The notes: generated from the letters alone by a model not told the origin. A DNA stretch of 64,000 bases from Candidatus Roizmanbacteria bacterium RIFCSPLOWO2_01_FULL_39_19 (GCA_001789725.1 MGAM01000013.1:14275-78274), one strand, 5' to 3'; numbered from the stretch's first letter, positions 47,618 to 63,662 are shown. Program-made: numbers and translations.

Positions 47618-47749
47618 AAAAGTCTATGTTTATCTTAAATAATATGCTTGCTCACGGTAAATCTCATAATCCAATTTTAGCATTCTATCAATTCGAGTTT
47701 ACTCCGTATGTGTCGAAGTGCTTGCTAGCCGTAGCTTTAACGAAGGATA

Positions 47750-47777
47750 GTCCAGGCTTGTAACAGACGTTAGAACT
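47750..47777 (+). repeat. Array junction J1 (type A right arm), preceded by a REP-like hairpin
   Basis: GTCCAGGCTTGTAACAGACGTTAGAACT after CCGTAGCTTTAACGAAGGATA. Confidence 0.85.
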
Positions 47778-47795
47778 CTTTTCGTTACACGAAAA

Positions 47796-48542
47796 TTATA
47801 CTTTTGTTCCAGTAATGATCGTTGCAAGACCTCCAGACATTGGTAACGATTCGACTTCAGAAAGTCCAACCTGATCAAATACCACGGTTAGATTAGATCC
47901 ATCTCCAAAGTCTGCTAAATATCTATTAATCATCAGAAAACGGTCATAGTGACCATCAAAAAGGGCGAAAGCGAGCGGCATCATTTTGTACATGTATAAG
48001 TGTTGTAGCCTTTGTAAGGCTCTCTGACTAGGTACCGTAATTTCTACTGTAGCGAATCTGCCACCGGGTTTTAACACACGTTTCATTTCCTTTGCAAAAA
48101 AATTGTGGAGATCCGAACACAATGTTTTCACCCCGTATCCAGAAAAAATGGCGTCTAAAGAATTATCCTCAAAAGGTAATGTGGTCGCGTCACTCGTCAT
48201 TAAGCTAACATTTGAGTATCTGTTTCTTTGTTTTCTTTGCTCTGCACCATTAATCATTCCCTTTGAAAAATCAATTGAGAAAATATGTCCATCGGGGCCA
48301 ATAAAGGGTAATAAGTGTTTCCACGATTCGCCTGTGCCTCCCATAAAATCTCCAACTACCATACCTTGCTTAAGTCTTAATACATGAGCGGCATTTCTTC
48401 TCCAAAGTTCGGTAAGCCCTAAAGAAGATAAAGTTGATACAAGTTCATACGAGCCTGATAGATCGTCGAAAAGTCCTTGTAGATATACGGGCGAGTAGTT
48501 TGTATCATGAACGGACGGATTTCCAGCTCCTTCTAAGCCCAT
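47796..48542 (-). CDS. UbiE/MenG-like SAM-dependent methyltransferase (cargo of J1-J2)
   Basis: D..GGTG, IDFS.GM, DAT.LPFEDNS.D, RVLKPGG. Confidence 0.85.
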   Translation of the reverse strand: MGLEGAGNPSVHDTNYSPVYLQGLFDDLSGSYELVSTLSSLGLTELWRRNAAHVLRLKQGMVVGDFMGGTGESWKHLLPFIGPDGHIFSIDFSKGMINGAEQRKQRNRYSNVSLMTSDATTLPFEDNSLDAIFSGYGVKTLCSDLHNFFAKEMKRVLKPGGRFATVEITVPSQRALQRLQHLYMYKMMPLAFALFDGHYDRFLMINRYLADFGDGSNLTVVFDQVGLSEVESLPMSGGLATIITGTKV

Positions 48543-48596
48543 AAGAAATCTATTTTAGCACTTTCTGACAAGATAATCAATTATGTAGACAATCAT

Positions 48597-48637
48597 GTCC
48601 AGGCTCGTGACAGATGTTAGAATCTTTTACGCACAAA
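48597..48637 (+). repeat. Array junction J2 (type A)
   Basis: GTCCAGGCTCGTGACAGATGTTAGAATCTTTTACGCACAAA. Confidence 0.85.
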
Positions 48638-48638
48638 C

Positions 48639-48986
48639 CTAATTGTCATTTTTCTCTAAAAGGACATTGAGTTGCTCAATGAGCGGAGGAATATCATTTT
48701 TGATAATGTCCCAGATGATGTTCGTGTCGACTTCCATATAGTCATGAATAGCAACATTACGAAAGTCGATAATATCTTGCCTTGGAATAGTGTCATGTTC
48801 TTTTCTGAACTCAGATGATATATTTGTTGCAGCCTCCCCAATTATTTCTAAATTTCTGATCGCCGCAGCTTGATCCCAATTATCTGTCTCGAAATGTTCA
48901 AAGTCATTAGCAGTTGCATAAGCAATAACAGCCTCAGCGGCATCTTTCATGTGCATTAAATAAGCATATGGATTACTATTTCTCAT
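48639..48986 (-). CDS. HepT-like (DUF86) HEPN toxin
   Basis: RNLEIIGEA, RNVAIHDY (RX4H). Confidence 0.9.
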   Translation of the reverse strand: MRNSNPYAYLMHMKDAAEAVIAYATANDFEHFETDNWDQAAAIRNLEIIGEAATNISSEFRKEHDTIPRQDIIDFRNVAIHDYMEVDTNIIWDIIKNDIPPLIEQLNVLLEKNDN

Positions 48987-49255
48987 ATAAATCTTTTTTC
49001 GTGTTTTAGTATGCTCTCTTTAAGATAGGGACTTATTCCGTTATAGCTTACTAGGTCAACTTCTTTTTGAAGCGATTTCTCTAGATCCCTTTTTAAACGT
49101 ACAAACAGAAGTCTCATTCCCTTAGGGGGTTGAATCAGTATGTCTATGTCACTTGTATCATCATAATCACCGCGTGCATAAGAACCAAATAATGCAGCTT
49201 TTTTTACGCCATATTGTTCTAGAAGCGGTATTATTTTCTGAGTTATTGTATCCAT
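48983..49255 (-). CDS. MNT (MntA-like) nucleotidyltransferase antitoxin
   Basis: LFGSYARG....SDID; overlaps the HEPN gene start. Confidence 0.9.
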   Translation of the reverse strand: MDTITQKIIPLLEQYGVKKAALFGSYARGDYDDTSDIDILIQPPKGMRLLFVRLKRDLEKSLQKEVDLVSYNGISPYLKESILKHEKRFI

Positions 49256-49351
49256 ATTTGTAATTCTATCAAATTGTTTGTAATTTGCGATGAGATAGTA
49301 ACCAATTTAATAGGCATTTAACTTTCGCCTTGTAGTAATTCGAACTGTTGT

Positions 49352-49402
49352 GAAAGTCTCAAAACTAAGTCCAGGCTAGTTGAATATGTAGGAAATTATT
49401 AT
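49352..49402 (+). repeat. Array junction J3 (type B), core at 49369
   Basis: GAAAGTCTCAAAACTAA-GTCCAGGCTAGTTGAATATGTAGGAAATTATTAT. Confidence 0.85.
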
Positions 49403-49444
49403 AGAGGTCAAATCTTCCAATATATAGCTTAATTGGAATAGACC

Positions 49445-49651
49445 TTATTGTTTGAAATGTTCGTGATTTTCATTCTCCCGAAAAAGTTCACTACAAGTCT
49501 CACAGAGATTTGCTGGTTCTAAGGGTTGTCCCTTGAATTTACATTTTTCTTCTTTACATACATTATCACCTGCTTCAAATTCTTCCTCTGTAATTCCCTT
49601 CATTTCAGGATGAAAACTGTAGCAAGTAAAACAAATATATCGTTTTTTCAT
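49445..49651 (-). CDS. Small Cys/His-rich putative metal-binding protein (sole cargo of J3-J4)
   Basis: CFTC, CKEEKC, CETC, HEH; TGATATAAT just upstream. Confidence 0.7.
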   Translation of the reverse strand: MKKRYICFTCYSFHPEMKGITEEEFEAGDNVCKEEKCKFKGQPLEPANLCETCSELFRENENHEHFKQ

Positions 49652-49660
49652 ATTAAGGTG

Positions 49661-49765
49661 ATTATATCAAAAGTCCGAATCTATTCCTCTGTTCAGATAG
49701 TTTGATATGTTTGAGTGAAGCTAAAAACCGAGTCCACGCTGGTTGAATATGTGGGGAATTATTAT
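49661..49765 (+). repeat. Array junction J4 (long left arm plus type B right arm), core at 49732
   Basis: ATTATATCAAAAGTCCGAATC...GTTTGATATGTTTGAGTGAAGCTAAAAACCGA-GTCCACGCTGGTTGAATATGTGGGGAATTATTAT. Confidence 0.85.
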
Positions 49766-50268
49766 TCAGCTAATATTGCCATTATTTGATTTGCTGTCTC
49801 TTCTGGTGTTTGATTAGTATTGTCAATTTTGTGCTCGTTACTGTACTTCGGTTCGTCTCTTAATTTTCTATTTAATTCAATAGATTGCTTAAAATCTCTG
49901 AAACCACTATCTCTTGATTCCGTAAGAACTCTTTGTTTGAGTATTTCATCGTTATTGAGATAGAGTGTAATAACTATATTTTCATAACTTTTGAGTTCTT
50001 TTATAATTCTTTCAATACCATTTTCTGTAAAGCCACCCACAATGACGTTCCTATAATTATGTTTTGCATAATTCTTCAATATGAATACTAAATTTTCAAA
50101 AGACATTTCTTCTTCAGCGGTGCTTGTATTTTTCCAGTCTTGATTAAGGTGGTAATCTCGGATCCAATCGTAATCAATATAAACAGAATCCAATTTCTTT
50201 TTAAGAAGCCTGGCGAGTGTGGTTTTACCCGATCCTTGAGCACCTAATATCAAGATAAAATTATTCAT
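49762..50268 (-). CDS. P-loop kinase (AAA_18/AAA_33-like)
   Basis: GAQGSGKTT, IDNT..TPEET. Confidence 0.85.
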   Translation of the reverse strand: MNNFILILGAQGSGKTTLARLLKKKLDSVYIDYDWIRDYHLNQDWKNTSTAEEEMSFENLVFILKNYAKHNYRNVIVGGFTENGIERIIKELKSYENIVITLYLNNDEILKQRVLTESRDSGFRDFKQSIELNRKLRDEPKYSNEHKIDNTNQTPEETANQIMAILAE

Positions 50269-50278
50269 ATCGAATCAA

Positions 50279-50362
50279 GTATATCAAAAGTCCAGATCTA
50301 TTCCTCTGTCGTAACAGTTTGATATGTTTGAGTGAAGCTAAAAAGTCTGTCCAAGGGGAGGG
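50279..50362 (+). repeat. Array junction J5: left arm near-identical to J4, right side tRNA-3'-like; core at 50349
   Basis: ...GTTTGATATGTTTGAGTGAAGCTAAAAAGTCT-GTCCAAGGGGAGGG. Confidence 0.75.
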
Positions 50363-50463
50363 TATCTTCCGTTAAAACTTCAGATACCAGGGATTCCCTC
50401 TTTCGCATAAAGCTTCAGAGGGCTAGCCATCCTCCGATTTATCCTTCTCTAAAGCTACTGATA
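50361..50463. repeat. Three REP-like hairpins at the 3' end of the GIY-YIG gene
   Basis: GGTATCT..AGATACC (50361-50388), CCCTCT..AGAGGG (50396-50422), TATCCTTCTCTAAAGCTACTGATA (50440-50463, inside the CDS). Confidence 0.75.
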
Positions 50464-50707
50464 ATGATTTGAAAAATCTTTTCTTCATAAATGCTATACC
50501 ACTCCCACTTTTTAAATATTTTTCGAATGTGATAGCCTGTTTTTCAGTTTTAAAAGCACAGTACCACTCAAGTTCATAATGTAAGTTTGACTTAGTAGAT
50601 TTTACACGGCCGGAAAGGTGTTCTCTAAGACGATTTTTCAAATCACTTGTATAACCTACATAATAACGATCGGTTTTGTAGTTTCTCAAAATATACGTAT
50701 AGAACAT
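50423..50707 (-). CDS. Stand-alone GIY-YIG nuclease
   Basis: FYTYIL..YYVGYT.DL..RL.EH, FEKYLKSGSG. Confidence 0.92.
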   Translation of the reverse strand: MFYTYILRNYKTDRYYVGYTSDLKNRLREHLSGRVKSTKSNLHYELEWYCAFKTEKQAITFEKYLKSGSGIAFMKKRFFKSLSVALEKDKSEDG

Positions 50708-50730
50708 AGTACTTTAGAGCTATACAGCTT

Positions 50731-50787
50731 GCTATCTTTCGTTAAAACTTCAGATAGCCAGCTATCCGTAGCTTTAGCGAAGGATAG
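50731..50787. repeat. Inverted pair of REP-like hairpins upstream of GIY-YIG
   Basis: GCTATCTTTCGTTAAAACTTCAGATAGC and CTATCCGTAGCTTTAGCGAAGGATAG. Confidence 0.75.
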
Positions 50788-50820
50788 TCCACGCTGGTTG
50801 ATTATGTAGGAAATTATTAT
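50787..50820 (+). repeat. Array junction J6 (type B), preceded by the same REP-like hairpin as J1
   Basis: GTCCACGCTGGTTGATTATGTAGGAAATTATTAT. Confidence 0.85.
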
Positions 50821-50829
50821 CAGACCTAC

Positions 50830-51183
50830 TTATTTACAATTTGAATAACAAAACGATATTTTCCCTATTACATCAAGTCTACGAAGTGGCAGAGGATTGT
50901 TTTTCACAAAAATCATATCCTGTTCAACTCTATCTACAATTCCGACCTCATTAACGTCAGGATTTTTTAAAGACTTAAAAGCAATAATATCCCCCATTTT
51001 GAGAGAACCAAGTCTATAACTTAGCTTGTTTACAATGACATATGCTCCAACTGGATATTTTGAAATTGTATTACGTAGTTGTAATGGTTGAAATGCGAAG
51101 AGATATAGGAAAATGGGAATTAGAAACAATAGAAATATACCGAAGACCAAAATTATTATGGATTTGAATAGTTTATCCACCAT
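50830..51183 (-). CDS. S26 signal-peptidase-like protein, catalytic residues doubtful
   Basis: TM then VIVNKLSY..GDIIAF..VIGK; start set at ATG 51183 below TGATATACT. Confidence 0.65.
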   Translation of the reverse strand: MVDKLFKSIIILVFGIFLLFLIPIFLYLFAFQPLQLRNTISKYPVGAYVIVNKLSYRLGSLKMGDIIAFKSLKNPDVNEVGIVDRVEQDMIFVKNNPLPLRRLDVIGKISFCYSNCK

Positions 51184-51190
51184 AGTTTTC

Positions 51191-51310
51191 AGTATATCAG
51201 AAACCAAGAAGTCCGAATCCACACTCCTGTTGCGATAGTTTGATACATTTCGGTGAGGCTAAAATGTTGGTCCAGGCTCGTAACAGACGTTAGAACTTTT
51301 TACGCACAAA
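51191..51310 (+). repeat. Array junction J7 (long left arm plus type A right arm), core at 51270
   Basis: AAGTCCGAATC...GATAGTTTGATACATTTCGGTGAGGCTAAAATGTTG-GTCCAGGCTCGTAACAGACGTTAGAACTTTTTACGCACAAA. Confidence 0.85.
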
Positions 51311-51324
51311 GAAAGGTATGATTG

Positions 51325-51570
51325 CTACTTTTTTTTGTAAGCAATTGATGGAGAAGTAGATCGAGGCAAAATAGATTGAACAATATTTTTTGGCAATTGC
51401 ATAGCCGCCTGCTTCAAAAATACAGAGGCATCGAGAATCTCAAGCAGTACCGCTTCTCTTTTTGGGGAGAAATGCACAATAAGATCGCCCGATTGCTCAG
51501 CATAATCTATGTTTTGATCATTTAGCTCGATAAGCAAAATATCATCCTCTTTGTTGTATTTAAATTTCAT
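51325..51570 (-). CDS. DUF2283 protein (putative antitoxin)
   Basis: Y..EDDILLI..LEILDAS. Confidence 0.85.
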   Translation of the reverse strand: MKFKYNKEDDILLIELNDQNIDYAEQSGDLIVHFSPKREAVLLEILDASVFLKQAAMQLPKNIVQSILPRSTSPSIAYKKK

Positions 51571-51572
51571 AT

Positions 51573-51830
51573 TTAATAATACCTTCCTTTCTCTGCGGGA
51601 TATACCGTAATTATCTTTATTATATCATCTTCAAGTTTGTATACAACTCTCAATATGAGTTTAGTATCGAAATTTTTCGAGGCAATAATTTTTGGTACAT
51701 CCGACTCTGAATCAATATGATCAGGATTGTTGACAGTATCTTTAATCTGTGCCAGGCTTATTTTAAAACCTCTTTTGGCAAGCAAAGGAATTTTATCTTT
51801 AACAAGATGCCTACTTAGAATGAATTTCAT
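51573..51830 (-). CDS. DUF4258 protein (putative RelE-like toxin)
   Basis: SRH, NPD, LRVVY...IITVYP; upstream of DUF2283. Confidence 0.8.
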   Translation of the reverse strand: MKFILSRHLVKDKIPLLAKRGFKISLAQIKDTVNNPDHIDSESDVPKIIASKNFDTKLILRVVYKLEDDIIKIITVYPAEKGRYY

Positions 51831-51967
51831 AAACTCAATTCTAACACTTTGCACAGTTAAGATTCTAGCCTTGTGGGGGAATTATTACAAAAGTTATTCT
51901 GTTACAACAAGAGTTATAATTTTACCTCTCTTGATTTTGATCTAATTTCCAATTAGGATAATAACAG

Positions 51968-53065
51968 ATGAGAAAAAACAAAAGAAGTAAGAAGCCATAC
52001 AATCCTTCTAATAGGAAATTCTTAATTGTAGCTTTATTAATTATAATTGTTGTATTATTTACTGGCAAAACCTTTCTACAAAAACAGGAGTCCCAATCCA
52101 ACAATGTGCTAGGATTACTCCTCGCTAAAGGAGACAACGATTCAGGTGGATCATCCGGAAGTGGTTCGGGGAGTGGATCGTCTGAGAGTGGAAGCTCGGA
52201 TTCAAGTGAAAGCCGATCTGATTCGGGTTCTTCAAATTCTGAATCTTCAGGTTCAGAATCATCTGGAAGTTCTGAGTCAACAAGTGGCACGGGAGGAGCT
52301 TCTGGTTCTTCGGGTTCATCTGGGGTTTCAAACATCGTTCCAACACGAACGAGGTTCATAAATCCCACAACAGGTATTCGCACGGAAACAGAGGTGAAAC
52401 AAGATGAAGAGCGTACCGAAGTAAGACTTAGTGAGGGTGAGCGTATCAGAACAAGAACGAAAGATGGGAGAACAAGAATTGATATTACCTCAGGAGGTGT
52501 GAAAACCAGACTTGAAATAAGAGATGGTAGGTTTATTATAAAAGCAGAACAGGGAGATGGAACTGAAGTTGAACTTGAAGATGACGCGCTCTTTAAGATT
52601 GAGGAAAGATTGGCTACAAACCAGATAAAAATAGCAACAGATGAGGCAAATAGATTTGTAATACAACGAGGTAATGCCGGTGCTGTTAGTCAATTCCCGC
52701 TATCCATCGATCTTGCCACCAATACGCTGATAGTGAACACCCCTTCAGGACAAAAAAATGTAACAGTGCTTCCAGATCAGGCAGTGCAAAATCTTCTCGT
52801 TGCAAACATTGTTAGTCGTTTAGGTAGCAGTGCGGTTGTTAATTCCTTTCGAACTGGTGAGACCTCAACGCTTGCTCAAGTTATAACATTGGGTGAGCAA
52901 AATGGTATTCCAATCTATGAAATCAATGGAATCTCAGATCAAAGACTACTGGGCTTTGTTCCCGTAACTATTGAAAAGACTATTGCTGTTTCTGCCGAAA
53001 CTGGAGCCGTAGTCTCAACTCAAGTCTCATTTGTTAATAAGGTGTTAGATTTTCTCTCCTTTTAA
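51968..53065 (+). CDS. Membrane-anchored protein with Ser/Gly linker
   Basis: TM, poly-S/G tract, C-terminal RLLGFVPV..VSAETG. Confidence 0.7.
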   Translation: MRKNKRSKKPYNPSNRKFLIVALLIIIVVLFTGKTFLQKQESQSNNVLGLLLAKGDNDSGGSSGSGSGSGSSESGSSDSSESRSDSGSSNSESSGSESSGSSESTSGTGGASGSSGSSGVSNIVPTRTRFINPTTGIRTETEVKQDEERTEVRLSEGERIRTRTKDGRTRIDITSGGVKTRLEIRDGRFIIKAEQGDGTEVELEDDALFKIEERLATNQIKIATDEANRFVIQRGNAGAVSQFPLSIDLATNTLIVNTPSGQKNVTVLPDQAVQNLLVANIVSRLGSSAVVNSFRTGETSTLAQVITLGEQNGIPIYEINGISDQRLLGFVPVTIEKTIAVSAETGAVVSTQVSFVNKVLDFLSF

Positions 53066-53080
53066 ACTCTACATTGTCTT

Positions 53081-53132
53081 GAAAGCCTAAAAAAGTAAGT
53101 CCAGGCTGGTTGAATATGTTGGAAATTATTAC
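53081..53132 (+). repeat. Array junction J8 (type B), core at 53099
   Basis: GAAAGCCTAAAAAAGTAA-GTCCAGGCTGGTTGAATATGTTGGAAATTATTAC. Confidence 0.85.
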
Positions 53133-53141
53133 CAGCAACAA

Positions 53142-53708
53142 TCATTTCTCTAAAATCCCCTCAATTCCTTCCAGTAACCTATCAAATTGCGTATACCCAG
53201 CACTTGCATTGAAGTGACCAGAGTTTGATATAAACGTTAAATCTACTCCAAGTTTACGTGCAAGCTCCTCACCATTTCCCAAAGAAACATATGGATCGTT
53301 ATCTGAATGATACACAGTAGCAATTCCTGCATTGGATTTTATTGTTTCCCAATCAAAGTTGAATCCATTACTGAAAGCATAATCACCATCCCAATTTTTA
53401 ATAGGTTTGACGCCGATTGGTGCAGAAACAAGAACAACCGCTTTAACTGGCTCTTGAAGTCTTTCAAGTAGTCGTAACAGGAATAACCCTCCCAAACTGT
53501 GACCAATTAAAATTGTATTGTCTTTTATGCTTTGTTCATAATCTTTAAGAACCTTGAGCCACGCTTCAAGAGATTGTCCTTCAGGGGTAGGAAACTGAGG
53601 AATAGTGGTGTCATATCCTGCTTTAACAAGCTCTTGTTTTAGCCACGGAAACCAGTTCTCACCTGGATGACCACCTGTGCCATGAAAAATAAAGAGGTTT
53701 TCTTTCAT
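53142..53708 (-). CDS. RBBP9/YdeN family alpha/beta hydrolase
   Basis: HG..G...NWFPWL, GHSLG, SDNDPYV, GHFN. Confidence 0.9.
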   Translation of the reverse strand: MKENLFIFHGTGGHPGENWFPWLKQELVKAGYDTTIPQFPTPEGQSLEAWLKVLKDYEQSIKDNTILIGHSLGGLFLLRLLERLQEPVKAVVLVSAPIGVKPIKNWDGDYAFSNGFNFDWETIKSNAGIATVYHSDNDPYVSLGNGEELARKLGVDLTFISNSGHFNASAGYTQFDRLLEGIEGILEK

Positions 53709-53805
53709 AGAGGAAATTATATCAGAAGTTCCATCTTTCAAATTGTCATAGGATTGAGCTCAATAGTAGCGAGAAGGATAAAGTTTCATGTATACTTTCT
53801 TTTAT

Positions 53806-54798
53806 ATGAGTGAAGCTGGAGATATGGGCGAACCACCAGTATCAAGATTGCGTGGTGATTTAGTTCAAAGACAACAATCAAAAGAAGCAAAAGGGTCTCC
53901 TTCGGAACGATTTCACCTTGCCACTACAGTCAACACTGTTGGTGATGAAGATGGCCCACCTTTTTCAGCGTCTTATCAACTTGATAATACAGGAAATCTC
54001 AAAGGAAGTCTTACTCCGAGAAATGGAGAGATGGTGAGCGTGCTATCTGTTGCAGATGGACTAGGTGGAGGTGCTTCAGAACTTCACAATGGATATGGCT
54101 CAACTCCACGAACTGGAGCCTATATTGCTGCACGAGAGGTACAATCTATTATTCCCGAACTTATTGCGAGTGATACAGGTTTTTTATCTGCATCAACCGC
54201 AGACATAAAATCACGACTTGAAGAGGCATTATCACAAAGGTTTCGTACTATGTCAGAGCGGTATCCACCTACACATGGAGAAAGTAGATTGAAAAGTGAT
54301 CTTATCAATCCGCTTGCCACAACATTCTCAACAGCCATCTTACATGAAACACCAGAGGGTACTAAGGTAAAAGTCTTTTGGAGAGGAGATTCCCCAGTAG
54401 TTATTGCAACACCCACAGAAACTTACGCAACAGAAACTGGCACAACTGGTGATGCAGCAATGGGCAGAGAAGGAAGTGTTAACCTATCAAATCAGTCTTT
54501 ACAGGCGGCAGAATTTACTTTTCCAGCAGATACGATTGTTGTATTCGCTGCATCTGATGGATGGTTCAAACGACCTGGCACTGATGGAATTCAAAGAGGA
54601 GTCCAAGACCTAATACAGGCATTGGGAGAAGCTGTTGGATCAAGTGATGTTCAACCAAGAATCAAAGCTAAATACGTTGTTGGATTGGTAGAACCTGATG
54701 ATACAACGCTTGCTCTTATAACGAATAGAAATAGTCCATCAGAATTACATCTGATACCGCCGATAAGTATTAAGCCGATAACCCCATTATCTATATAA
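53806..54798 (+). CDS. PP2C/SpoIIE-like phosphatase
   Basis: DED, VADGLGG, TT, GDS, ASDG, DDTT. Confidence 0.75.
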   Translation: MSEAGDMGEPPVSRLRGDLVQRQQSKEAKGSPSERFHLATTVNTVGDEDGPPFSASYQLDNTGNLKGSLTPRNGEMVSVLSVADGLGGGASELHNGYGSTPRTGAYIAAREVQSIIPELIASDTGFLSASTADIKSRLEEALSQRFRTMSERYPPTHGESRLKSDLINPLATTFSTAILHETPEGTKVKVFWRGDSPVVIATPTETYATETGTTGDAAMGREGSVNLSNQSLQAAEFTFPADTIVVFAASDGWFKRPGTDGIQRGVQDLIQALGEAVGSSDVQPRIKAKYVVGLVEPDDTTLALITNRNSPSELHLIPPISIKPITPLSI

Positions 54799-54811
54799 AA
54801 GCTTTAATAGC

Positions 54812-55966
54812 TTATGTGAGAGAACCTGCCCTTTTATAAAAATACGTATTAGCAAGTAAAACCGCCTGTGCACATACAAGGGCTGGGACTATTCCCCAAA
54901 TATCTGCTATGACGCCCAAAATAAATGACGACAGGGCAATTAAAAGGCACGTAGTAAATGATTGAAGCGACGCCATTGTTGCTCGTTGTTCATTAGTAAA
55001 TTCTTGATGGAAAAGGGTGTTCTCAGCAACATTGGCTGAGCCGTAAAATAATGAAGTCAATGCCATAAAGATCGGCGAGAGTGGAGTAATGAAAATCGCA
55101 GCAAGAGTAGTTATAATTGGCGTAGATATAGTATCCGTAATAATTACTTTTATTGGTGTAAATCTTTTAATTATCTTTCCACCAAAATAATAACTTACCG
55201 CAGCAGCAACTCCTGAGACAGTGCGAGGAATACCAAGAGCCCATGTTGGCCAGACTAGATTGTAAAAAGCAGCCTTAAACTCATACGCAGCCTCTCCCAC
55301 GCCATAGTTAATGGTTCCAGCGATAGTGAGTAATCGTAATTTTTTATTCTCAAGTGTCTTTTTAATAGCTATATTTAAGTGTTGAAATACATTCCCAGTC
55401 TTTTTAGTATGTACTTTTGGTTCTATCAACTGTGTACTCAATAACACCGATATAACCTGAGGAATAACAGAGAGCCACATAACAAGCGGAAATGAGATAT
55501 ATGCTATGAAGCCTCCTAAAACTGCAGAAACTGCTGATGCTACCTGAAACATTGAACTCGTTTGTCCAAGATGATGAGAGTATTCCTGTTCTTGATTGTG
55601 TTCTCTTAGTGTATCGTGAAGTAATGAAGTGTTATTACCACTAAAAAACGATCTACCTAATCCTTCAAAGATAGCTCCAACCACAAGAATCCAATATGAG
55701 ATTCCGATTGCATAAAAAACTACTGCTAAGACACCTGATAATGCTCCTAAAATCATCGTATTTTTCCTTCCAATTCTGTCTGAAAAAATACCTGTTGGGA
55801 CTTCAAGTAAGGCCGTTGAAATAAAAACAACAGAAATAATACTCATGGCAAGTGCATACGAGCCAGTAATTCTTTGAAAGTAGAGAATTAAGATTGCAGC
55901 AAAGAGACGAAAACTTGAGAAGAAGTTAAACCAAGTGAGGACTCTAATGTTTCTGTGAGGCGACAT
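54812..55966 (-). CDS. MFS transporter
   Basis: EVPTG..SDRIGRK, many TMs, RAT..S. Confidence 0.9.
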   Translation of the reverse strand: MSPHRNIRVLTWFNFFSSFRLFAAILILYFQRITGSYALAMSIISVVFISTALLEVPTGIFSDRIGRKNTMILGALSGVLAVVFYAIGISYWILVVGAIFEGLGRSFFSGNNTSLLHDTLREHNQEQEYSHHLGQTSSMFQVASAVSAVLGGFIAYISFPLVMWLSVIPQVISVLLSTQLIEPKVHTKKTGNVFQHLNIAIKKTLENKKLRLLTIAGTINYGVGEAAYEFKAAFYNLVWPTWALGIPRTVSGVAAAVSYYFGGKIIKRFTPIKVIITDTISTPIITTLAAIFITPLSPIFMALTSLFYGSANVAENTLFHQEFTNEQRATMASLQSFTTCLLIALSSFILGVIADIWGIVPALVCAQAVLLANTYFYKRAGSLT

Positions 55967-56107
55967 TATTCAAGTGTATCAGAAGTTCTAACCGTTCCGC
56001 CTCATTGTAGTTTGGATTGTTAGGGCAGGTATCCATTAAACTAGACACATATTCTCACTGACAAATAGTGTTAAAAGTAACAATAAGTGAGGAGGTGAAC
56101 CACGTTT

Positions 56108-56362
56108 ATGGGTACATTTAAATTCATACCAAAAGAAACAAAGGAACAGATATTAAAACGAATAAAAGAAGAAGGTATCACTGTTTTGCAAGCAGCGGCA
56201 GACGCAGGCATCTCTACAAAGTCAATATATAACTGGATGCGAAGCAAAACCATTTCAGATTGTTCTGTTTTGGAAATTAGTCGCCTCAAGCGGGAAAACA
56301 AAGAATTACTAGAGATAATAGGTAGACTAACCCACAATTTAACTAAACCAAAAAAAAATTAA
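56108..56362 (+). CDS. IS3 OrfA (HTH)
   Basis: GIS..SIYNW, EISRLKREN.EL. Confidence 0.85.
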   Translation: MGTFKFIPKETKEQILKRIKEEGITVLQAAADAGISTKSIYNWMRSKTISDCSVLEISRLKRENKELLEIIGRLTHNLTKPKKN

Positions 56363-56372
56363 AGAGATCCGT

Positions 56373-57209
56373 ATGATAGTTACAGAAAAAAAACGAGAAA
56401 GTAAAACACAATTAGCCAAGAACCTTGGAGTTTCAAGATCGTCTCTGTACTACAAAACAAAAAGAGATGATCAAGACCAAGAAATGAAAAAACAAATCTT
56501 AATTGTGCTTGGTTTACATCCAAGTTACGGGCATAAAAGAATTGCTCTTGAGTTTGGACTTAACAACAAACGGATACGTCGTGTTATGAAAAAATACGAC
56601 ATAAAACCATACCAAAGAAGGGTTCAGAGACTTAGAAAAAAAGAAGATGAGGGAAAAGAAGCAACGGAATTAAAGAATGAGATTGTTGGATTTTGTCCAA
56701 TAGCACCAAACATCGTCTGGGCATCCGATTTTACATATATTAAATTTCAAGGATCATTTATCTATCTGGCAACAGTCATTGATATATATACCAGAGAGAT
56801 TATCGGCTGGAATATATCAATGCGACATGATACGAATTTAGTCTTGGAGGCATTAAAACAAGCTATCGAGAGGATACAAACAAAACCACTCTATCTGCAT
56901 TCTGATCAAGGATCAGAATATGACGCAAGGGAGTATGAAAACCATGTTATGGAAAAAGGTATTGTTATGTCCATGAGTCACAAATCATCTCCCTGGGAAA
57001 ATGCTTATCAGGAATCTTTTTATTCACAATTTAAAGTTGATTTAGGACACGTTGATAGATTTGATACAAGAGAACAGTTAATTGAAGAAATGTATCAAAC
57101 AATTTATTACTACAACAATGAAAGAATACATGGTAGTTTAAAGATATCTCCTGTTAAATTTAAACAAAATCATGAAAATCGGTTAGAGAAAGTGAGAATA
57201 ACTGTCTAA
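56373..57209 (+). CDS. IS3 OrfB DDE transposase
   Basis: WASDFTYI, HSDQGSEY, ENAYQESF, YYNNERIH. Confidence 0.92.
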   Translation: MIVTEKKRESKTQLAKNLGVSRSSLYYKTKRDDQDQEMKKQILIVLGLHPSYGHKRIALEFGLNNKRIRRVMKKYDIKPYQRRVQRLRKKEDEGKEATELKNEIVGFCPIAPNIVWASDFTYIKFQGSFIYLATVIDIYTREIIGWNISMRHDTNLVLEALKQAIERIQTKPLYLHSDQGSEYDAREYENHVMEKGIVMSMSHKSSPWENAYQESFYSQFKVDLGHVDRFDTREQLIEEMYQTIYYYNNERIHGSLKISPVKFKQNHENRLEKVRITV

Positions 57210-57227
57210 AGAAATGGGTACTTGACA

Positions 57228-57665
57228 AGCAGTTCCTGTTCCTGCACCAACATTGCCGTTTTGTACTGGTTCTGATGAAAGGTTGTCAACAGCTTCAGCA
57301 CCATACTCTGGGTCATATTGAAACAGTTCAACTCCAAGATCGTACACGATAGCTCCACTAACCTCTGGAATGATTGACTTCCCAGTTTTCCATCCTATTC
57401 CTTGTTCTGTAAGCTTTTGAGAAATTGGTGTGGCAGATAGTAACCCACTCAAACTTCCACCAGCAATAAAAATCCCTCTCCTCTCTGGGAAACTTTTTCC
57501 ATTTCGCAGGTTTTCTGTTGAGTACAATCCAGGAGCTCCACCGTAGGACACGTATGAGACAGGCAATACCTTATCGAAGAGAATAAAAGTGCAACCCGTA
57601 AGTTTATCTGGATGAGTGGAATGTCCAACCTGAACACCAGATAAAGCAGTGAGAGTATTGTTCAT
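57228..57665 (-). pseudogene. Peptidase S58/DmpA (P1) family gene truncated by IS3
   Basis: GVQVGH..LTGCT, GGAPG, GGS..GL, GNVGAGTG then the IS end; C-terminal half absent. Confidence 0.85.
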
Positions 57666-57671
57666 ACAGGT

Positions 57672-57759
57672 ATTATATCTCAGCTTTTTAGATTGTTATA
57701 AAAGCCTAAACGGAGCGTGTCCAGGCTCGTAACAGACGTTAGAACTTTTTGGGCACAAA
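57672..57759 (+). repeat. Array junction J9 (type A), core at 57719
   Basis: GATTGTTATAAAAGCCTAAACGGAGCGT-GTCCAGGCTCGTAACAGACGTTAGAACTTTTTGGGCACAAA. Confidence 0.85.
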
Positions 57760-57830
57760 TCTGAGGGATAAGTTATATAGATATTTAAGGCCCTATATCA
57801 ATTTTTCTGCTATAATAGGCCAAACTGTAT

Positions 57831-59381
57831 ATGACAGCAGAAGTAGCTTCTCATACAAAACAGGTCTTTTTAGTCGCTGAGGGTTCAATTGGTCCAGTAG
57901 AAAGAGATCGAGGCGGAAACTGGTATGAACCACTGGGAGTTTGGGTTCATCCCGAAATACAATCCTATATGGATTCAATGCCGGAAGCAGAACGTCTACT
58001 GGTTGAACGATCATTTCCTCTAAGTTTTGCTGTAGCCACTGCTTATAACGCTCAAATTGCTGACGTTGATTCTCATCAATTATGGCCACAATCTTTTTAT
58101 GAAAATGACGGTACGCAAAAACTACTTGAAGCGGCTGAAGTAAATCCTTCAATTGGAGATCCATTTGCAGTGGTCAGAGGTCAACCACCATATGGCGTTA
58201 TTCCCTTCAGTCTTACATATTTTGATGAACTTCAATCTGCTGTTGCTGCTTTAGAAGATATGATAGCAACAGACAGTCCGTCCGCCGTAAATTTAGCTCC
58301 ATATTTAGATGCACTCCGAAGAGCATACACACCCGATGAATTACGGACCAGTGATTTACCCTATTTGCATGAGGCGGATACAGCATGGGTGCACCTTGAT
58401 CCCGACACAGAGTTAATTTTTTTTGCAGAACCTACCGAGTCTTATTCTGATAACCTTGCTGCATTACGAGATGACGATAGCATAAGAAGATGGGCAATTG
58501 ATGTTGCAAATGCAAACGGACTTGGGCCATGGAAGAATTTTTTTGAGTTTAGGTTGATGCAGAAAGTTGATTTTGTGGTTAACCAAGAAGAAGTAGATGC
58601 AATTAGAGCAACAACTCGTAATCATTTCGTTAGACCAGGAGATGCACCTGTCCCTGCAAGTTTAGAGTTTAGGCGCTTACTTCTAGCCTCTGGACACGGA
58701 GCTCATCCCGCAAGAACAGCAAAAAATTACCCAAATTTTAATGATATTCGAAACGATCCAAATGGTGGTTATAAGAACGTACTCTACACCAATATGATTG
58801 AGGAAGGATTAGATAGTCAAGCCGTACCAATTCTGATGCATGCTTTTGGCACTGATTTTATGAGTCGATTCCCCAAAGAAAGACTCATGAGAGGCTCAAC
58901 ATTGCGGATTATCGGACATGAAGAAAATCATTCTTACAGGGTACACAAGGGTAATCTTGCTTTGGAAGAATTAAAGGCAACCATTGATGGCTTTGTGGCA
59001 GTTGATGAAGCGGGGAGATTTAAGGACGAAATAGATACGGTTTGTTTATCTACCGTCGGAGGAGCATTGTTTATTCGTTATAAAACTGCAAAAGCTCGGG
59101 CTGAAGGAGACACAAGAACCGAAAGAGGCTATAAGGCATACCATACCGGTGATACTATCATGATGAATTATCTTGCAGCAGCTGGGGCGTTTATTGACGT
59201 TAATGGTCATTATGGGGATATTGATTTTGATAATTTCAGGACAGCAATGAGAGACCTATGTAAAGAACTAGAGCAAGTCAGAGAAGGGACTGTTTCAGCT
59301 TCTGATTTTCAAGCAGCATGGGGAGCAGAAGAGATCTGGGATAGCTTTAAGGTTCTGCCTCCTGGAGTAGAACTCCACTAA
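57831..59381 (+). CDS. Zincin metallopeptidase, M49/DPP-III-like
   Basis: AKNYPN, KNVLY.N, HEENH, LEELKA. Confidence 0.6.
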   Translation: MTAEVASHTKQVFLVAEGSIGPVERDRGGNWYEPLGVWVHPEIQSYMDSMPEAERLLVERSFPLSFAVATAYNAQIADVDSHQLWPQSFYENDGTQKLLEAAEVNPSIGDPFAVVRGQPPYGVIPFSLTYFDELQSAVAALEDMIATDSPSAVNLAPYLDALRRAYTPDELRTSDLPYLHEADTAWVHLDPDTELIFFAEPTESYSDNLAALRDDDSIRRWAIDVANANGLGPWKNFFEFRLMQKVDFVVNQEEVDAIRATTRNHFVRPGDAPVPASLEFRRLLLASGHGAHPARTAKNYPNFNDIRNDPNGGYKNVLYTNMIEEGLDSQAVPILMHAFGTDFMSRFPKERLMRGSTLRIIGHEENHSYRVHKGNLALEELKATIDGFVAVDEAGRFKDEIDTVCLSTVGGALFIRYKTAKARAEGDTRTERGYKAYHTGDTIMMNYLAAAGAFIDVNGHYGDIDFDNFRTAMRDLCKELEQVREGTVSASDFQAAWGAEEIWDSFKVLPPGVELH

Positions 59382-59396
59382 ACTCTATTAACCAAT

Positions 59397-60083
59397 TTAA
59401 CTTTTTATCATAGCATCAAAAACTATTGGAGATTTATTTTTATTAGCTAGATCTTGAAGATGAGCCAATGTGTTTTCCATTGCTTCATTTACCTCAAATA
59501 TAAACTTCTTACTGATAATTTTTTCTTCTCCGGTCAGCACAATCAGTTTGCTCTCGATATTACCTTTATGAATTAATTTTTGCTTAGCATTTTCAAACTC
59601 TATAGCAAGTCTTGTTGTTCCTCTTGCATTAACAACAATCGGAAATCTGATATTCAGATCTGGTAATCTTGATCCACCTTGATCAACGTTAAAAAATAGC
59701 TTGAAATGCATCGGCCCATTTCCTAATTTTATATTTACGCCTTTGATTACTTGAGGATAACCATATTGATTTGTTATTGTGAACTCTAAGTGTATACGAG
59801 TTCCCAGCAACGTAGGGCTTTTTACTATGCCCATAAAAGGACTTAAAGTCAAACTCATTTTATTATCAATATTTCCCATACTACCATCACTCGAGAGTAG
59901 TTCTTGTGTTTGCTGTGCCACTAAGTCGGGGTAAACTTCGCTTGCCGTTCCAACGTATGCTTGATTAATTACCAGGTCTCTAGAGACATTAACATTAACT
60001 TCCTTTTTATCTCCTAACTTAAGCGACGGGTTTAAGCTAAGTTTCTCAATATTTATTAATTTATCTACGGCGCTTATGCCCAT
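59397..60083 (-). CDS. Hypothetical protein
   Basis: 228 aa ORF. Confidence 0.6.
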   Translation of the reverse strand: MGISAVDKLINIEKLSLNPSLKLGDKKEVNVNVSRDLVINQAYVGTASEVYPDLVAQQTQELLSSDGSMGNIDNKMSLTLSPFMGIVKSPTLLGTRIHLEFTITNQYGYPQVIKGVNIKLGNGPMHFKLFFNVDQGGSRLPDLNIRFPIVVNARGTTRLAIEFENAKQKLIHKGNIESKLIVLTGEEKIISKKFIFEVNEAMENTLAHLQDLANKNKSPIVFDAMIKS

Positions 60084-60101
60084 ATTGTAAATATTCCAAA
60101 A

Positions 60102-60524
60102 CTAGTTTTTAGTATAAGTTTTATCTATTAACCCTTTAAGTGATCGTACTAAGTTAACAATGGTTTGCATAATCGGATTCATTTGTTTAGCAGTCGTTGG
60201 TCCGGCCGCATTACTCGCCATAGCAACGCCATAATGTCTGAAAACATCCTCCACAATTTTCCCAACAGTGCTCAATAAGTATTGATCCTTCTCTCTCTCA
60301 AGCCATTTAAGCTTCCAAAAAAGGTAAGCAGAAACAGTAAAGGTAGAGAGAATACTAATAATACCTGTTTTATATTGCCATTCAGGTAGATCTGAGAACA
60401 AAAGTCGATTAAGAAGGTAAAGTGCAGCTCCTCCAGAAAATATAGGGACTATGGATCCTGTGTTTTTTTCACGTAGTTTCTTAAATATCTCATCTTTTTT
60501 CATACCTACTTGTATAAATTTCAC
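60102..60524 (-). CDS. Hypothetical two-TM protein
   Basis: Two hydrophobic segments. Confidence 0.55.
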   Translation of the reverse strand: MKFIQVGMKKDEIFKKLREKNTGSIVPIFSGGAALYLLNRLLFSDLPEWQYKTGIISILSTFTVSAYLFWKLKWLEREKDQYLLSTVGKIVEDVFRHYGVAMASNAAGPTTAKQMNPIMQTIVNLVRSLKGLIDKTYTKN

Positions 60525-60610
60525 TTGAGCAAGTAGTATATCATAGTTTAGGCTGTTATAAAAGAATAGTCATTCTTGTCTCTATTTATTCTGCTCGCAT
60601 TAAAGAGTTT

Positions 60611-60943
60611 TTATTTAGAGCCCTTCTCTTTGATCGGAAACAAGTATCGATATAGTGCTCCGCCGCCATAAAACACAAGAGGTGTTATTACAGCAATGCC
60701 AAGATAAATCCACATTAGTTTTTCAATATATTTATCAGTTTCTATATAGCCGAAACAAATGTCTATTTGATCAATTCCCACTCTTTTAACGCATTTCCCG
60801 TATTCCTCGGTCAATCGAAGACTTTGCTCACTTCTGGTGCTAAGTATTTTTAATCCCAGTATCGCACTTAAGATTGTTACAAGCAGCACTAAAATATTTA
60901 CCAATTTGTATAATCGTTGCCAACTCAATTGTCTTTTTTGCAT
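60611..60943 (-). CDS. Hypothetical two-TM protein
   Basis: TM-loop with two Cys-TM. Confidence 0.6.
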   Translation of the reverse strand: MQKRQLSWQRLYKLVNILVLLVTILSAILGLKILSTRSEQSLRLTEEYGKCVKRVGIDQIDICFGYIETDKYIEKLMWIYLGIAVITPLVFYGGGALYRYLFPIKEKGSK

Positions 60944-60951
60944 ATTCTTTT

Positions 60952-61293
60952 TTAATCGATAGGATATTTTTTAAAACATTCATCTTTTGACTTACGGCGA
61001 AGTTCTTCATTCCGATCCGCATTAGCAAACGGCAAACTGCAGTCCTCTTTAAGCCCACGAACTTTACACTCACTATCCCAATGCTCACTGTAAGCGCTGT
61101 CTGCGCCTGATAAACATATATTAAGATATGCCCTATTGGCAACTTTTTGTCTATCGGTTGCCTGCTGCTCTTTTTTTTGAAGATCTATTTTTGTCCATTC
61201 TTTTTGTGGCAAGAAAATCACAAAATAGTAGGCAGTCGATAAGGTGATAATAAGCATTGCCATGGAAAACAGGTTTTTACTATCAAACTTCAT
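60952..61293 (-). CDS. Membrane-anchored Cys-containing protein
   Basis: YYFVIFLP TM, four Cys, CFKKYP end. Confidence 0.65.
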   Translation of the reverse strand: MKFDSKNLFSMAMLIITLSTAYYFVIFLPQKEWTKIDLQKKEQQATDRQKVANRAYLNICLSGADSAYSEHWDSECKVRGLKEDCSLPFANADRNEELRRKSKDECFKKYPID

Positions 61294-61314
61294 AGACTTT
61301 TTAAAAAAACTAGA

Positions 61315-62073: not shown

Positions 62074-62201
62074 AGTTAATAGATCAAAATCTATACCTAT
62101 AGTATATCAGACCTATAGAAACTTTTCAAGTTCAATACTGTGCCTAAAAAAGCAGTATAAAGACGATATTTTATGGCTAAGGAAGGGAAAATAAGCAGTA
62201 T

Positions 62202-62426
62202 ATGACATATTACTATACAAACAAAATTAAAGAGGAGCTTGGAAATAACATAAAACAGTCAAGAAAAAAGCTAAAGAAGAAACAAGTTGAGATTGCCGTC
62301 GACGCAGGAGTCAATCCCAGTTACTACGGTAAAATTGAGCGTGGTTTAGTCAACCCATCGATCGAAAAAGTTTTTCGGATTGTAAAGGCACTAAGGGTTA
62401 AATCTTCAGACTTGCTTCCGTTCTAA
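62202..62426 (+). CDS. XRE-family HTH regulator
   Basis: LG..IK..RK, YYGKIERG..NPS. Confidence 0.9.
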   Translation: MTYYYTNKIKEELGNNIKQSRKKLKKKQVEIAVDAGVNPSYYGKIERGLVNPSIEKVFRIVKALRVKSSDLLPF

Positions 62427-63649: not shown

Positions 63650-63662
63650 CTCCAAAAACAGC

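Follow-up and report, generated by a model that had tools for sequence, protein, structure and literature searches.

How can a repeat without an open reading frame of its own look like protein-coding DNA? This question is raised by a stretch of 64,000 nucleotides from Candidatus Roizmanbacteria bacterium RIFCSPLOWO2_01_FULL_39_19 (hereafter, the window), which carries eight direct repeats with the common core GTCCAGGCT on the + strand between positions 47750 and 57764. The core GTCCASGCTNGT matched eight times on that strand (47750–57730) and once, with one mismatch, on the − strand at 1760, a match unrelated to the junctions; these nine matches compare with 0.65 expected, and none of 100 shuffles reached nine. 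Translated from TCC, the arms to the right of the core read S-R-L-V-x-[DY]-V-x-x-[FY]-Y, followed by a short tail. An earlier note on this DNA had proposed that the arms are interchangeable C-terminal tails of an integrase, and its eight arm translations were all reproduced letter for letter.

Junctions and cargo of the window array

The outermost junction, J1 (47750–47790, + strand, like all those that follow), consists of the core GTCCAGG and a type A right arm (a P′ half-site). Type A arms were also found at J2 (48597–48642; tail SRLVTDVRIFYAQT, then stop), J7 (51270–51321; SRLVTDVRTFYAQRKV, stop), and J9 (57719–57764; SRLVTDVRTFWAQI, stop), the last junction in the window, and type B arms at J3 (49369–49432; SRLVEYVGNYYRGQIFQYIA, stop), J4 (49732–49789; STLVEYVGNYYSANIAII, stop), J6 (50787–50844; STLVDYVGNYYQTYLFTI, stop), and J8 (53099–53153; SRLVEYVGNYYQQQSFL, stop). 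J5 (50341–50345) is a half site only: its left arm, of the usual class, terminates in GTCCA, and the place of the right arm is taken by an unrelated unit, a GIY-YIG gene between inverted hairpins. The tail of J1 (SRLVTDVRTLF...) meets no stop nearby and continues antisense to a methyltransferase gene. The left arm of J1 (47718–47749, + strand; ccgtagctttaacgaaggata) contains a small hairpin (CTAGCC..GGATAG) of the same class as the left arm of J6; we read it as the original tRNA flank (B arm) because this class lies directly downstream of an intact tRNA-Tyr in locus L116.

The details that had suggested a coding function also held. All three variable sites in the first eight type A codons are synonymous third positions, and third positions account for five of the six variable sites in the first 11 type B codons. 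Seven of the eight tails stop after 14–20 codons, and the tails have no long open frame upstream (0–16 open codons), with TAG directly 5′ of TCC in J1 and J6.

The cargo between the junctions (47796–57665) consists of gene families on the − strand with some + strand ORFs: a UbiE-type methyltransferase, a HepT/MNT pair, a 68-aa ORF, a P-loop kinase, the GIY-YIG gene, and an S26-like protein, followed by a DUF2283/DUF4258 pair, a 365-aa secreted protein (+), an alpha/beta hydrolase, a 336-aa ORF (+), an MFS transporter, and an S58 peptidase fragment. The S58 peptidase gene is interrupted by an IS3-family insertion sequence (56061–57236, + strand, ends placed by eye; OrfA 56108–56362, OrfB 56373–57209), which stands outside the attachment-site system; apart from its transposase, no recombinase was found among the window cargo. 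The innermost unit (57765–64000), possibly the youngest element, is truncated by the end of the window and measures 6 kb or more. It encodes a 516-aa ORF that belongs to no family, together with small ORFs whose weak matches are phage-like (BppU_N, small terminase).

Codon-position pattern of the arms in related genomes

With all 34 positions weighted equally, we scanned 40 loci drawn from the window, from 14 genomes of its family and order, and from elsewhere. The scan returned 94 arm copies and no control matches, and 85 of the copies were full length. Among these 85, mismatches at codon positions 1, 2, and 3 numbered 79, 111, and 247, respectively (column permutation p = 0.0006). The 18 copies outside the reach of earlier search patterns, a subset whose bias runs against the codon-position effect, split 37/41/60 (p = 0.037). 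Variation with a period of three thus persisted with many more copies and was not even over codon positions, as expected if the right arms behave like coding DNA. In the arm frame, only 4 of the 85 copies had a stop within 11 codons, compared with 10 to 72 of 85 in the other five frames. Replacements were conservative, with V, I, M, or L at codon 4, V or I at codon 7, R or K at codon 8, and F or Y at codon 10; Arg was encoded by AGA, AGG, CGG, and CGA, and the stop fell at codon 15 in many genera. Arms were present in 51 of the 223 genomes of the order, searched by DNA pattern and by peptide, and in 48 of the 401 sampled genomes of the class.

A codon pattern could arise by chance in a structured RNA or in regulatory DNA such as a terminator or an operator. 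A weak hairpin can indeed be drawn (CGTGGAGG/TTTTTAYG), and T-runs and −10 boxes lie nearby. However, the arms had no Rfam match, their pair-type covariation was no better than in shuffles, and neither the period-three signal (p = 0.0006) nor the identity of the arm with the C-terminus of recorded recombinase proteins (see below) fits such a function, which makes this reading disfavored and scarcely credible.

The array also resembles a chromosomal integron, or an attC cluster without an integrase in which the arms would form one side of the attC hairpin: at a conserved chromosomal place, repeats of 60–100 nt alternate with small accessory-gene units that share one orientation. In fact, no integron integrase was found: the TIGR02249 cut-off is 265 bits, whereas the best score was 35 bits for the window's genome and 82 bits among five relatives, and the matches broke around profile positions 181–232 in the test for the IntI-specific insertion. 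By eye, no R″/R′ pairing was seen between left and right arms. The arm's only internal hairpin was 74.7% paired, versus 72.6% in shuffles, and was not richer in compensatory pairs than these; moreover, the arm sequence is conserved over the whole class, unlike attC. The integron reading can be regarded as refuted for practical purposes. What the array shares with integron arrays is a fixed platform, units in one orientation between recombination sites, and cargo rich in toxin–antitoxin pairs; it differs in having neither IntI nor a folded attC, and in having conserved sites with a reading frame and a tRNA end as the platform.

tRNA-Tyr and the recombinase genes that read into the site

The arm core is the antisense 3′ end of tRNA-Tyr(GTA), which in antisense starts GTCCAG[GA]GGG[GA]AGGATTCGAAC. 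A tRNA-Tyr(gta) was present in 25 of the 31 array loci scanned; it lay just past the last arm in all 25 and was antisense to the arms in 23 of them, the two loci of opposite orientation being L010 and L093. Related loci thus showed an intact tRNA at the inner end and repeats in one orientation, as expected of tandem accretion at a tRNA gene. Going beyond the earlier note, these data narrow the chromosomal partner to the 3′ end of tRNA-Tyr(GTA).

Given this partner, the arms might be displaced partial copies of the tRNA-Tyr 3′ end left by islands of tyrosine integrases, their protein-like appearance being an accident of descent. The motifs GTCCAG[GA], GAGGAT, and T.GAAC are common to the arms and antisense tRNA-Tyr, and each relative examined encodes two tyrosine recombinases. 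Tandem islands with partial tRNAs are well known (Islander, PMC4383910; tycheposons, 10.1101/2020.12.28.424599). However, the identity with the tRNA covers 7 nt only, beyond which the arms diverge through 3-nt and 2-nt insertions and many substitutions; ARAGORN found no tRNA in the arms and called none in the window. A descent by copying also does not account for the period-three variation, the conserved stop position, or the serine recombinase genes that run through the site in the arm's frame. The tyrosine recombinases are Xer-like by size and score, fall far below the integron-integrase cut-off, and lie far from the arrays: PF00589 matches in the window's genome and five relatives were on other contigs or hundreds of kb away, with none on the island. 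We consider this origin very unlikely.

Large serine recombinase (LSR) genes do read into the site. In L099, a locus from a genome of the same order, a 550-aa LSR ends ...NPRL|SRGEDSNF... and, keeping the frame of the arms, stops within the antisense tRNA-Tyr; two arms are located 8.3 and 12.3 kb upstream. In the metagenomic loci L140 and L143, the order is arm, 8.6–9.2 kb of cargo, LSR, and tRNA-Tyr. The LSRs of L099 and L140 both contain Resolvase (PF00239), Recombinase (PF07508), and Zn_ribbon_recom (PF13408) domains, all above cut-off. Furthermore, the arm at the far end of L140 encodes SRLVEDVRNFYAYI followed by a stop, which is the exact tail of a database LSR, P0021. This protein and the integrated L140 LSR are identical at 531 of 531 residues up to the core and differ only in the tail after it, SRLVEDVRNFYAYI in P0021 and SRGEDSNLRRR in L140. 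GTCCAGG is common to the far-end arm and the tRNA-side junction, and joining the L140 LSR body to the far-end arm gives exactly P0021. A third protein, P0005 (537 aa), ends ...RPIW|LRLVENVRTSYVTSH, and most of its homologs among those listed continue ...W|LPGLDSNQEP, the tRNA-antisense reading. In these cases, the arm translation is literally the C-terminus of an LSR protein on record.

These observations bear on the earlier proposal that attP lies in the 3′ end of a recombinase gene, large serine or tyrosine, whose C-terminus depends on the neighboring unit or tRNA. The recombinase is of the serine type, not the tyrosine type. The position of attP is borne out in relatives (L099, L140/P0021, and P0005), whereas no recombinase gene was found reading into the arms of the window or of its own genome; the exchange of C-termini is likewise supported by one LSR with both tails, again in relatives only. 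Nearly all arms in arrays are orphans with no recombinase gene upstream. An LSR abutting tRNA-Tyr was found only in L099 among the array loci searched, so most arrays are LSR-less. No LSR with the type B tail (SRLVEYVGNYY) or the window's exact type A tail was found in the 401 sampled genomes. For long proteins with the majority tail, a word search gave none at E ≤ 10 and a profile search against 1.84 billion representatives returned nothing beyond a 40-aa fragment, both searches being insensitive to a 14-residue match.

The window's own array would reach its tRNA-Tyr end in an assembly gap, and the recombinase of its innermost unit is likewise unassembled. There is no LSR gene or remnant in the window and none adjoining an arm in its genome, where tblastn with two tRNA-Tyr-type LSRs gave chance matches only and the genome's own LSR, located at the tmRNA gene, matched itself alone. 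Contig C8 of the same genome starts in the T-loop of an antisense tRNA-Tyr, and the assembly has no other tRNA-Tyr. The inner end of the array (LSR and tRNA-Tyr) therefore probably falls between contig C13 and the start of C8, in a gap that the assembly does not bridge.

Site architecture is consistent with an attP/attB pair. Relative to the tRNA, the arm places GAGGAT 3 bp and T[AC]GAA 5 bp further from the core, the latter at +21 to +25 as against +16 to +20 in antisense tRNA-Tyr. A section of Rutherford et al. 2013 (PMC3783163) describes the distal motif of serine integrases as shifted 5 bp outward in attP relative to attB. The distal motif of the arm conforms to this rule of about 5 bp and is a candidate zinc-ribbon motif. 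At the LSR end in L119, no clear dyad was seen.

Proposed route of array formation and its implications

Taken together, we consider it highly probable (roughly 85%) that the junctions are attachment sites of elements inserted serially at the extreme 3′ end of tRNA-Tyr(GTA) by an LSR. The attP would lie inside the last ~15 codons of the LSR gene, with the core GTCCAG[GA], antisense to the tRNA's last acceptor bases, discriminator, and the first C of CCA, read as Ser-Arg and probably containing the crossover point. In the free element, the P′ arm (the right arm described above) would complete the LSR with the tail LV[ED][DY]V[RG]T[FY]Y.. and a stop, and the arms would read like protein because they encode there the last ~14 residues of the element's own serine integrase. 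Upon integration, the LSR gene would come to abut the tRNA and take its tail from the antisense strand (SRGEDSN...), and the P′ arm would move to the far end of the element, orphaned beside pre-existing DNA. Further insertions would displace older units outward with loss of their LSR, leaving an array of [variable left arm][core][P′ arm][cargo]. The window's array was presumably built by this route, and selection on the tail would operate for as long as the arm is part of a live element.

For textbook serine integrases, attR and attL are not recombination partners of attP, so serial insertion needs either a tolerant left half of the chromosomal site or another origin of the LSR-less units. In a rival view of the array, these units would be cassettes that have stayed mobile instead of dead remnants, each with a complete site of left half, core, and P′ arm, captured and excised at tRNA-Tyr by an LSR acting in trans, as on an integron-like serine-recombinase platform. 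Left arms of different genera share the consensus TTAGATTGTC..GCTCTAAAA, 6–9 nt before the core, and the same class also adjoins the intact tRNA. By eye, GCTCTAA in many left arms mirrors TTAGAAC of the right arm as a near inverted copy, approximately symmetrical around core position +5. Left- and right-arm types occur in varying combinations in the window, and the cargo is integron-like (toxin–antitoxin pairs and small enzymes, each with its own extended −10 box). Contigs of four public runs join left and right arms of different junctions, but the sides of these joints are only 21–56 nt long at 90% likeness, and repeats or other organisms are a frequent source of such joints. In addition, neither an excised circle nor an empty site was seen, and serine integrases normally require attP × attB. 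We regard mobile cassettes as possible but doubtful. This explanation agrees with serial insertion on the arms and differs on the nature of the array.

Serial insertion at tRNA-Tyr by an LSR can be compared with several known systems. It shares with serine-integrase attP × attB systems (A118/LI, Bxb1, and phiC31) the Resolvase, Recombinase, and zinc-ribbon domains, a short core, hybrid end sites, and a distal motif whose position in the element's site is shifted 5 bp outward from that in the chromosomal one. Unlike in those systems, the chromosomal site is a tRNA gene 3′ end in antisense and attP lies within the recombinase's last codons, so integration would rewrite the enzyme's C-terminus. 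SSV1-type archaeal virus integrases are tyrosine recombinases with attP inside int, and integration splits the gene into two large parts, which inactivates it. The attachment site likewise lies within the recombinase's own gene and integration alters that gene, whereas here the enzyme is a serine recombinase and only the last 12–20 residues are exchanged, leaving the body intact. In mycobacteriophage BPs, which uses a tyrosine integrase, attP lies in the repressor gene and integration swaps its C-terminal end. The protein encoded across attP thus differs between free and integrated states in both cases, but the gene affected here is that of the serine integrase itself, known as two sequence forms.

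Tandem tRNA/tmRNA islands, as described in parts of the Islander/TIGER work and of the preprint on Prochlorococcus tycheposons, are similar in serial insertion at one tRNA with older units outward, direct repeats, degraded integrase-less units, and a variable island at a fixed place. They differ in using mostly tyrosine integrases and true partial tRNA copies, whereas the repeat here has just 7 nt in common with the tRNA, contains a reading frame, and does not represent a tRNA fragment. According to the tycheposon preprint, 27 of its 937 elements carry a large serine recombinase (10.1101/2020.12.28.424599). In the 2014 Islander paper, targeting of tRNA genes by serine recombinases is described as not known (PMC4383910), and later reports are possible. 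Antisense overlap with other tRNA genes or tmRNA was found for 9 of the 12 LSR genes in the genomes of five relatives and for 19 of the 20 complete metagenome genes. Because such overlap is common, tRNA targeting may be the rule rather than the exception for serine integrases of these lineages.

We did not find described a serine integrase that ends within its own attachment site and, once integrated, within an antisense tRNA. In this layout, the C-terminus would be rewritten at every integration or excision, since the end of the integrase gene is the attachment site or the antisense tRNA. Conservation at the amino acid level argues that the free-form tail has some role. More speculatively, the P′ tail and the tRNA-antisense tail may make two functionally different integrases, with LSR-less units captured and released in trans at a tRNA-Tyr platform. 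If so, the P′-encoded tail (SRLVEDVRTFYAQI), under selection class-wide, would be needed for integration of the free element or for enzyme stability, and the tRNA-antisense tail (SRGEDSN...) would weaken or redirect the integrase after integration; the enzyme would sense its own recombination state without a separate directionality factor. For tool building, such compact integrases with short, predictable sites would be of use. Serial insertion accounts for a conserved, ORF-less "coding" repeat in about one-fifth of the genomes of one small-genome groundwater order and in many families of the class. It identifies tRNA-Tyr as the anchor of the main variable region of these bacteria, and, if trans capture is true, tRNA-Tyr would be the platform of a serine-recombinase "integron" in these small genomes.

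The repeat array and its cargo

On the + strand of the window, a repeat starting GTCCA[GC]GCT occurs in eight copies between 47750 and 57764. The pattern gave nine matches in the window against 0.65 expected, one of which (at 1760, on the opposite strand) is unrelated, and an additional, ninth junction lies at approximately 50341, where GTCCA alone is followed by an unrelated unit. Each full junction (J1–J4 and J6–J9) comprises a left arm, the core, and a right arm whose translation from TCC is referred to here as its tail; type A tails start SRLVTDVRT and type B tails read SRLVEYVGNYY. Between the repeats lie small units whose accessory genes are mostly on the − strand. They encode a methyltransferase, a HepT/MNT pair, a P-loop kinase, a 94-aa GIY-YIG protein (50423-50707, − strand), a DUF2283/DUF4258 pair, a hydrolase, an MFS transporter, and an S58 peptidase whose gene is interrupted by an IS3-family element (OrfA/OrfB; 56061-57236), with a fragment remaining at 57183-57665. 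An integron was ruled out: neither this genome nor five relatives encode IntI, and no attC fold was found. Core genes for a ROK kinase, NusA, and IF-2 lie to the left of the array, and a 516-aa ORF (57831-59381) with no Pfam family and no relative among 24 genomes of the family directly follows the last arm. When the flanking ROK and 516-aa proteins were used for an empty-site comparison, the relatives were too distant.

An extended −10 box, with the sequence TGATATAAT or a near variant, was located 6-13 nt upstream of the ATG of each − strand cargo gene (49660-49680, 50277-50295, 51195-51212, 53710-53725, 55975-55990, and 57668-57685), suggesting that a promoter and a very short leader come with each unit. 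Inverted hairpin copies occur on both sides of the GIY-YIG gene (50346-50786); their loop is conserved (..TCTGAAGTTTTAACGAAAGA..), and their stems covary (GGTATCT/AGATACC, GCTATCT/AGATAGC, and CCCTCT/AGAGGG). In other genomes, this hairpin sits inside arms, between CTCG and GTGGA (loci L091:11392 and 12605, and L087:1110), and the hairpin around the gene may be a small mobile module.

Coding-like behavior of the right arms

The earlier note had read the right arms as protein-coding DNA from their tails and from counts of variable sites; every quoted tail and all of these counts were reproduced from the sequence. Because the eight copies in the window are few, more were collected. Repeat arrays were found in 51 of the 223 genomes of the order (by a DNA pattern with 2 mismatches allowed, for which a reversed-pattern control gave approximately 7 hits, and by a 15-residue peptide in six frames), and the repeat was also present in 48 of the 401 genomes sampled from the class, including one flagged as unpublished (G288). 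These first search patterns left third codon positions free and were thus biased, and therefore 40 loci were rescanned without this bias using two natural 34-mers with up to 11 mismatches at any position, which yielded 94 copies, with 0 hits for the reversed strings. Substitutions in this larger set were not evenly spread: codon positions 1, 2, and 3 carried 79, 111, and 247 mismatches, respectively (85 full-length copies, p = 0.0006), and in the 18 copies beyond the reach of the earlier patterns the numbers were 37, 41, and 60 (p = 0.037). A stop within 11 codons was present in 4 of the 85 copies in the arm frame, compared with 10-72 of 85 in the other frames. Tails from more distant genera (e.g., SRAIEGIRTFYTQV and SRTMESIRTFYAQI) showed conservative replacements, and the position of their stop codon was unchanged. 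The coding-like behavior of the arms is real. The open frames around the tails of six-frame matches in the order (n = 78) span 14-129 aa, and therefore the array arms are not gene ends; one chance match in the order-wide search lay inside a 243-aa frame.

Several other readings of the arms were ruled out. Coding on the minus strand, in the frame that shares the wobble position, is interrupted by stops in J6 and several relatives. For a structured RNA, the hairpin within the arm was barely above shuffles, and Rfam returned nothing relevant. The tmRNA tag of the genome (AGYNRFAYTVA) is unrelated to the tails. A tail-like internal match in a 619-aa protein of another genome (G406) was taken as chance, and the slightly tail-like end of IS3 OrfB (NRLEKVRITV) was judged a coincidence.

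A serine recombinase gene with two tails

The main point of the earlier note, namely that the attachment site lies in the 3' end of the recombinase gene, for which SSV1 and mycobacteriophage BPs are parallels, is supported. One case is locus L099, in a genome of the same order as the window, where a 550-aa large serine recombinase (LSR) with Resolvase, Recombinase, and Zn_ribbon_recom domains runs over an antisense tRNA-Tyr gene and reads ...SNPRL up to the core and then SRGEDSNFRRDKPDSFTDCSD to its stop, with TCC AGG in the arm frame; two arms are located upstream on the strand of the LSR, at distances of 8.3 and 12.3 kb. Another involves P0021 (543 aa), a database relative of the L099 LSR, which ends ...SNPRL and, past the junction, SRLVEDVRNFYAYI. 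A metagenome scan with P0021 recovered contigs L140, L141, and L143, in which the LSR ends SRGEDSNLRRR over tRNA-Tyr, and L140 and L143 contain one arm each, 8.6 and 9.2 kb upstream of the LSR, respectively. Up to the core, the L140 LSR and P0021 are identical in 531 of 531 residues, and the upstream arm of L140 encodes SRLVEDVRNFYAYI followed by a stop, which is exactly the P0021 tail; therefore, rejoining the element ends gives the recorded protein. One LSR gene exists with both tails. This change of tail may act as the recombination-state switch that the earlier note proposed. As for a recombinase running into the arms, it was found in relatives, where the L099 LSR reads across the site in the arm frame, but not in the genome of the window (77%-complete), where no LSR lies beside any arm.

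We also searched for recombinases carrying the tail itself. The majority arm had 0 hits in viral contigs. A word-based search for long proteins that carry the tail gave nine candidates, 0 of them at E ≤ 10, and a tail profile against 1.84 billion representatives matched two sequences, a 40-aa fragment and an unrelated repeat protein, both methods being poor at 14-residue matches. No LSR with the type B tail was found in the 401 sampled genomes. In genome G425, the class-wide search placed a tail match at residues 532-546 of an open frame of 547 residues (537 aa from the first start), and this protein is an LSR ending ...RPIW and then, across the junction, LRLVENVRTSYVTSH. The ...RP.W junction is common in its homologs, most of which, among the matches listed, continue with LPGLDSNQEP or similar, the kind of continuation that an antisense tRNA T-arm encodes.

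Ending inside an RNA gene was frequent among LSR genes. In the genome of the window and five relatives (loci L127-L139 in the relatives), 9 of 12 LSR genes have their 3' end within a tRNA or tmRNA gene that converges on them, as do 19 of the 20 complete LSR genes at metagenome loci L140-L161; the overlapped tRNAs are Asn, Ser, Glu, Pro, Lys, Gly, Gln, His, and Tyr. The sole LSR in the genome of the window (539 aa) belongs to a 6.6-kb element at the tmRNA gene, outside the window (contig C15:48553-55600 of G000; locus L126), which is flanked by direct repeats, approximately 75 nt long, derived from the 3' region of the tmRNA. This LSR ends ...LVEMPGVEPG and then SRMVFKKRSSKG, translated from antisense tmRNA, reading in frame through GTCCAGA from G at the junction into SRMV.., and GTCCAGA.T.GT is common to this site and the arms of the window. 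Tyrosine recombinases were rejected as the agents, as those found were Xer-like and distant from the arrays. A Xer/dif system was likewise set aside: inspection by eye revealed no dyad separated by a 6-8 bp spacer, and the site is present in only about a quarter of the genomes. According to a statement in the Islander paper (PMC4383910), serine recombinases were not known to target tRNA genes. We found no literature combining "Candidate Phyla Radiation" with "large serine recombinase" and, among the matches listed, nothing relevant on a serine integrase whose gene contains attP; the tycheposon study includes 27 LSR-bearing elements, whose sites may be described in its supplements.

tRNA-Tyr as the target and the possible growth of the array

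ARAGORN detected tRNA-Tyr(gta) in 25 of the 31 array loci; in all 25 it lies past the last arm, and in 23 it has the expected orientation. In the two exceptions, reversed copies lie at L010:12420-12504 and L093:8955-9038, possibly owing to inversion. The antisense 3' end of tRNA-Tyr starts GTCCAG[GA]GGG[GA]AGGATTCGAAC, so the repeat core is present in the tRNA gene. Array locations are conserved (L085-L103 and L010-L013) because tRNA-Tyr sits there: within the family of the window the arrays adjoin nusA-infB, and in the order's larger family an asnS / D-Ala-D-Ala carboxypeptidase block is a few kb away.

The arm and antisense tRNA-Tyr both carry GTCCAG[GA]; beyond it, the arm has GAGGAT 3 bp and T[AC]GAA 5 bp farther from the core than the tRNA does. 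For serine-integrase sites, Rutherford et al. 2013 (PMC3783163) describe a distal motif that is 5 bp nearer the center in attB than in attP. By this rule, the 5-bp outward shift makes the arm resemble a P' half-site and the tRNA a B' half-site, and the two look like half-sites of one enzyme; the crossover dinucleotide must lie within the 7 bases common to both. Among the left arms there are a few classes, namely small hairpins and a class with GCTCTAAAA 6-9 nt upstream of the core; in other genomes, these classes also occur immediately 3' of intact tRNA-Tyr genes. At the outermost junction, J1, the left arm matches the flank of the intact tRNA-Tyr at locus L116, which would fit J1 as the first attL.

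No tRNA was found in the window by ARAGORN, and no complete tRNA-Tyr was found in the assembly; contig C8 begins within the T-loop of an antisense tRNA-Tyr. In the simplest reading, the array would continue past the end of the window's contig (C13), with the innermost unit followed by an LSR and the tRNA at C8. Among the array loci searched, L099 was the only one with an LSR at tRNA-Tyr, and most arrays are LSR-less. Standard serine integrases would not be expected to place a second element beside a first. For the array to grow, either the chromosomal left half matters little, or LSR-less units move in trans, or there is another route. Logan contigs from four public runs contained joints between arms of different junctions, with short sides and a likeness of 90, which are not proof of activity, and many different sequences, by short matches, preceding the arm at 53099. 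Islands arranged in tandem at tRNA genes, with inner units that have degraded, are well documented (Islander, PMC4383910; tycheposons, 10.1101/2020.12.28.424599). Beyond what the earlier note had proposed, the enzyme, a serine recombinase, and its chromosomal target, tRNA-Tyr, are now named.
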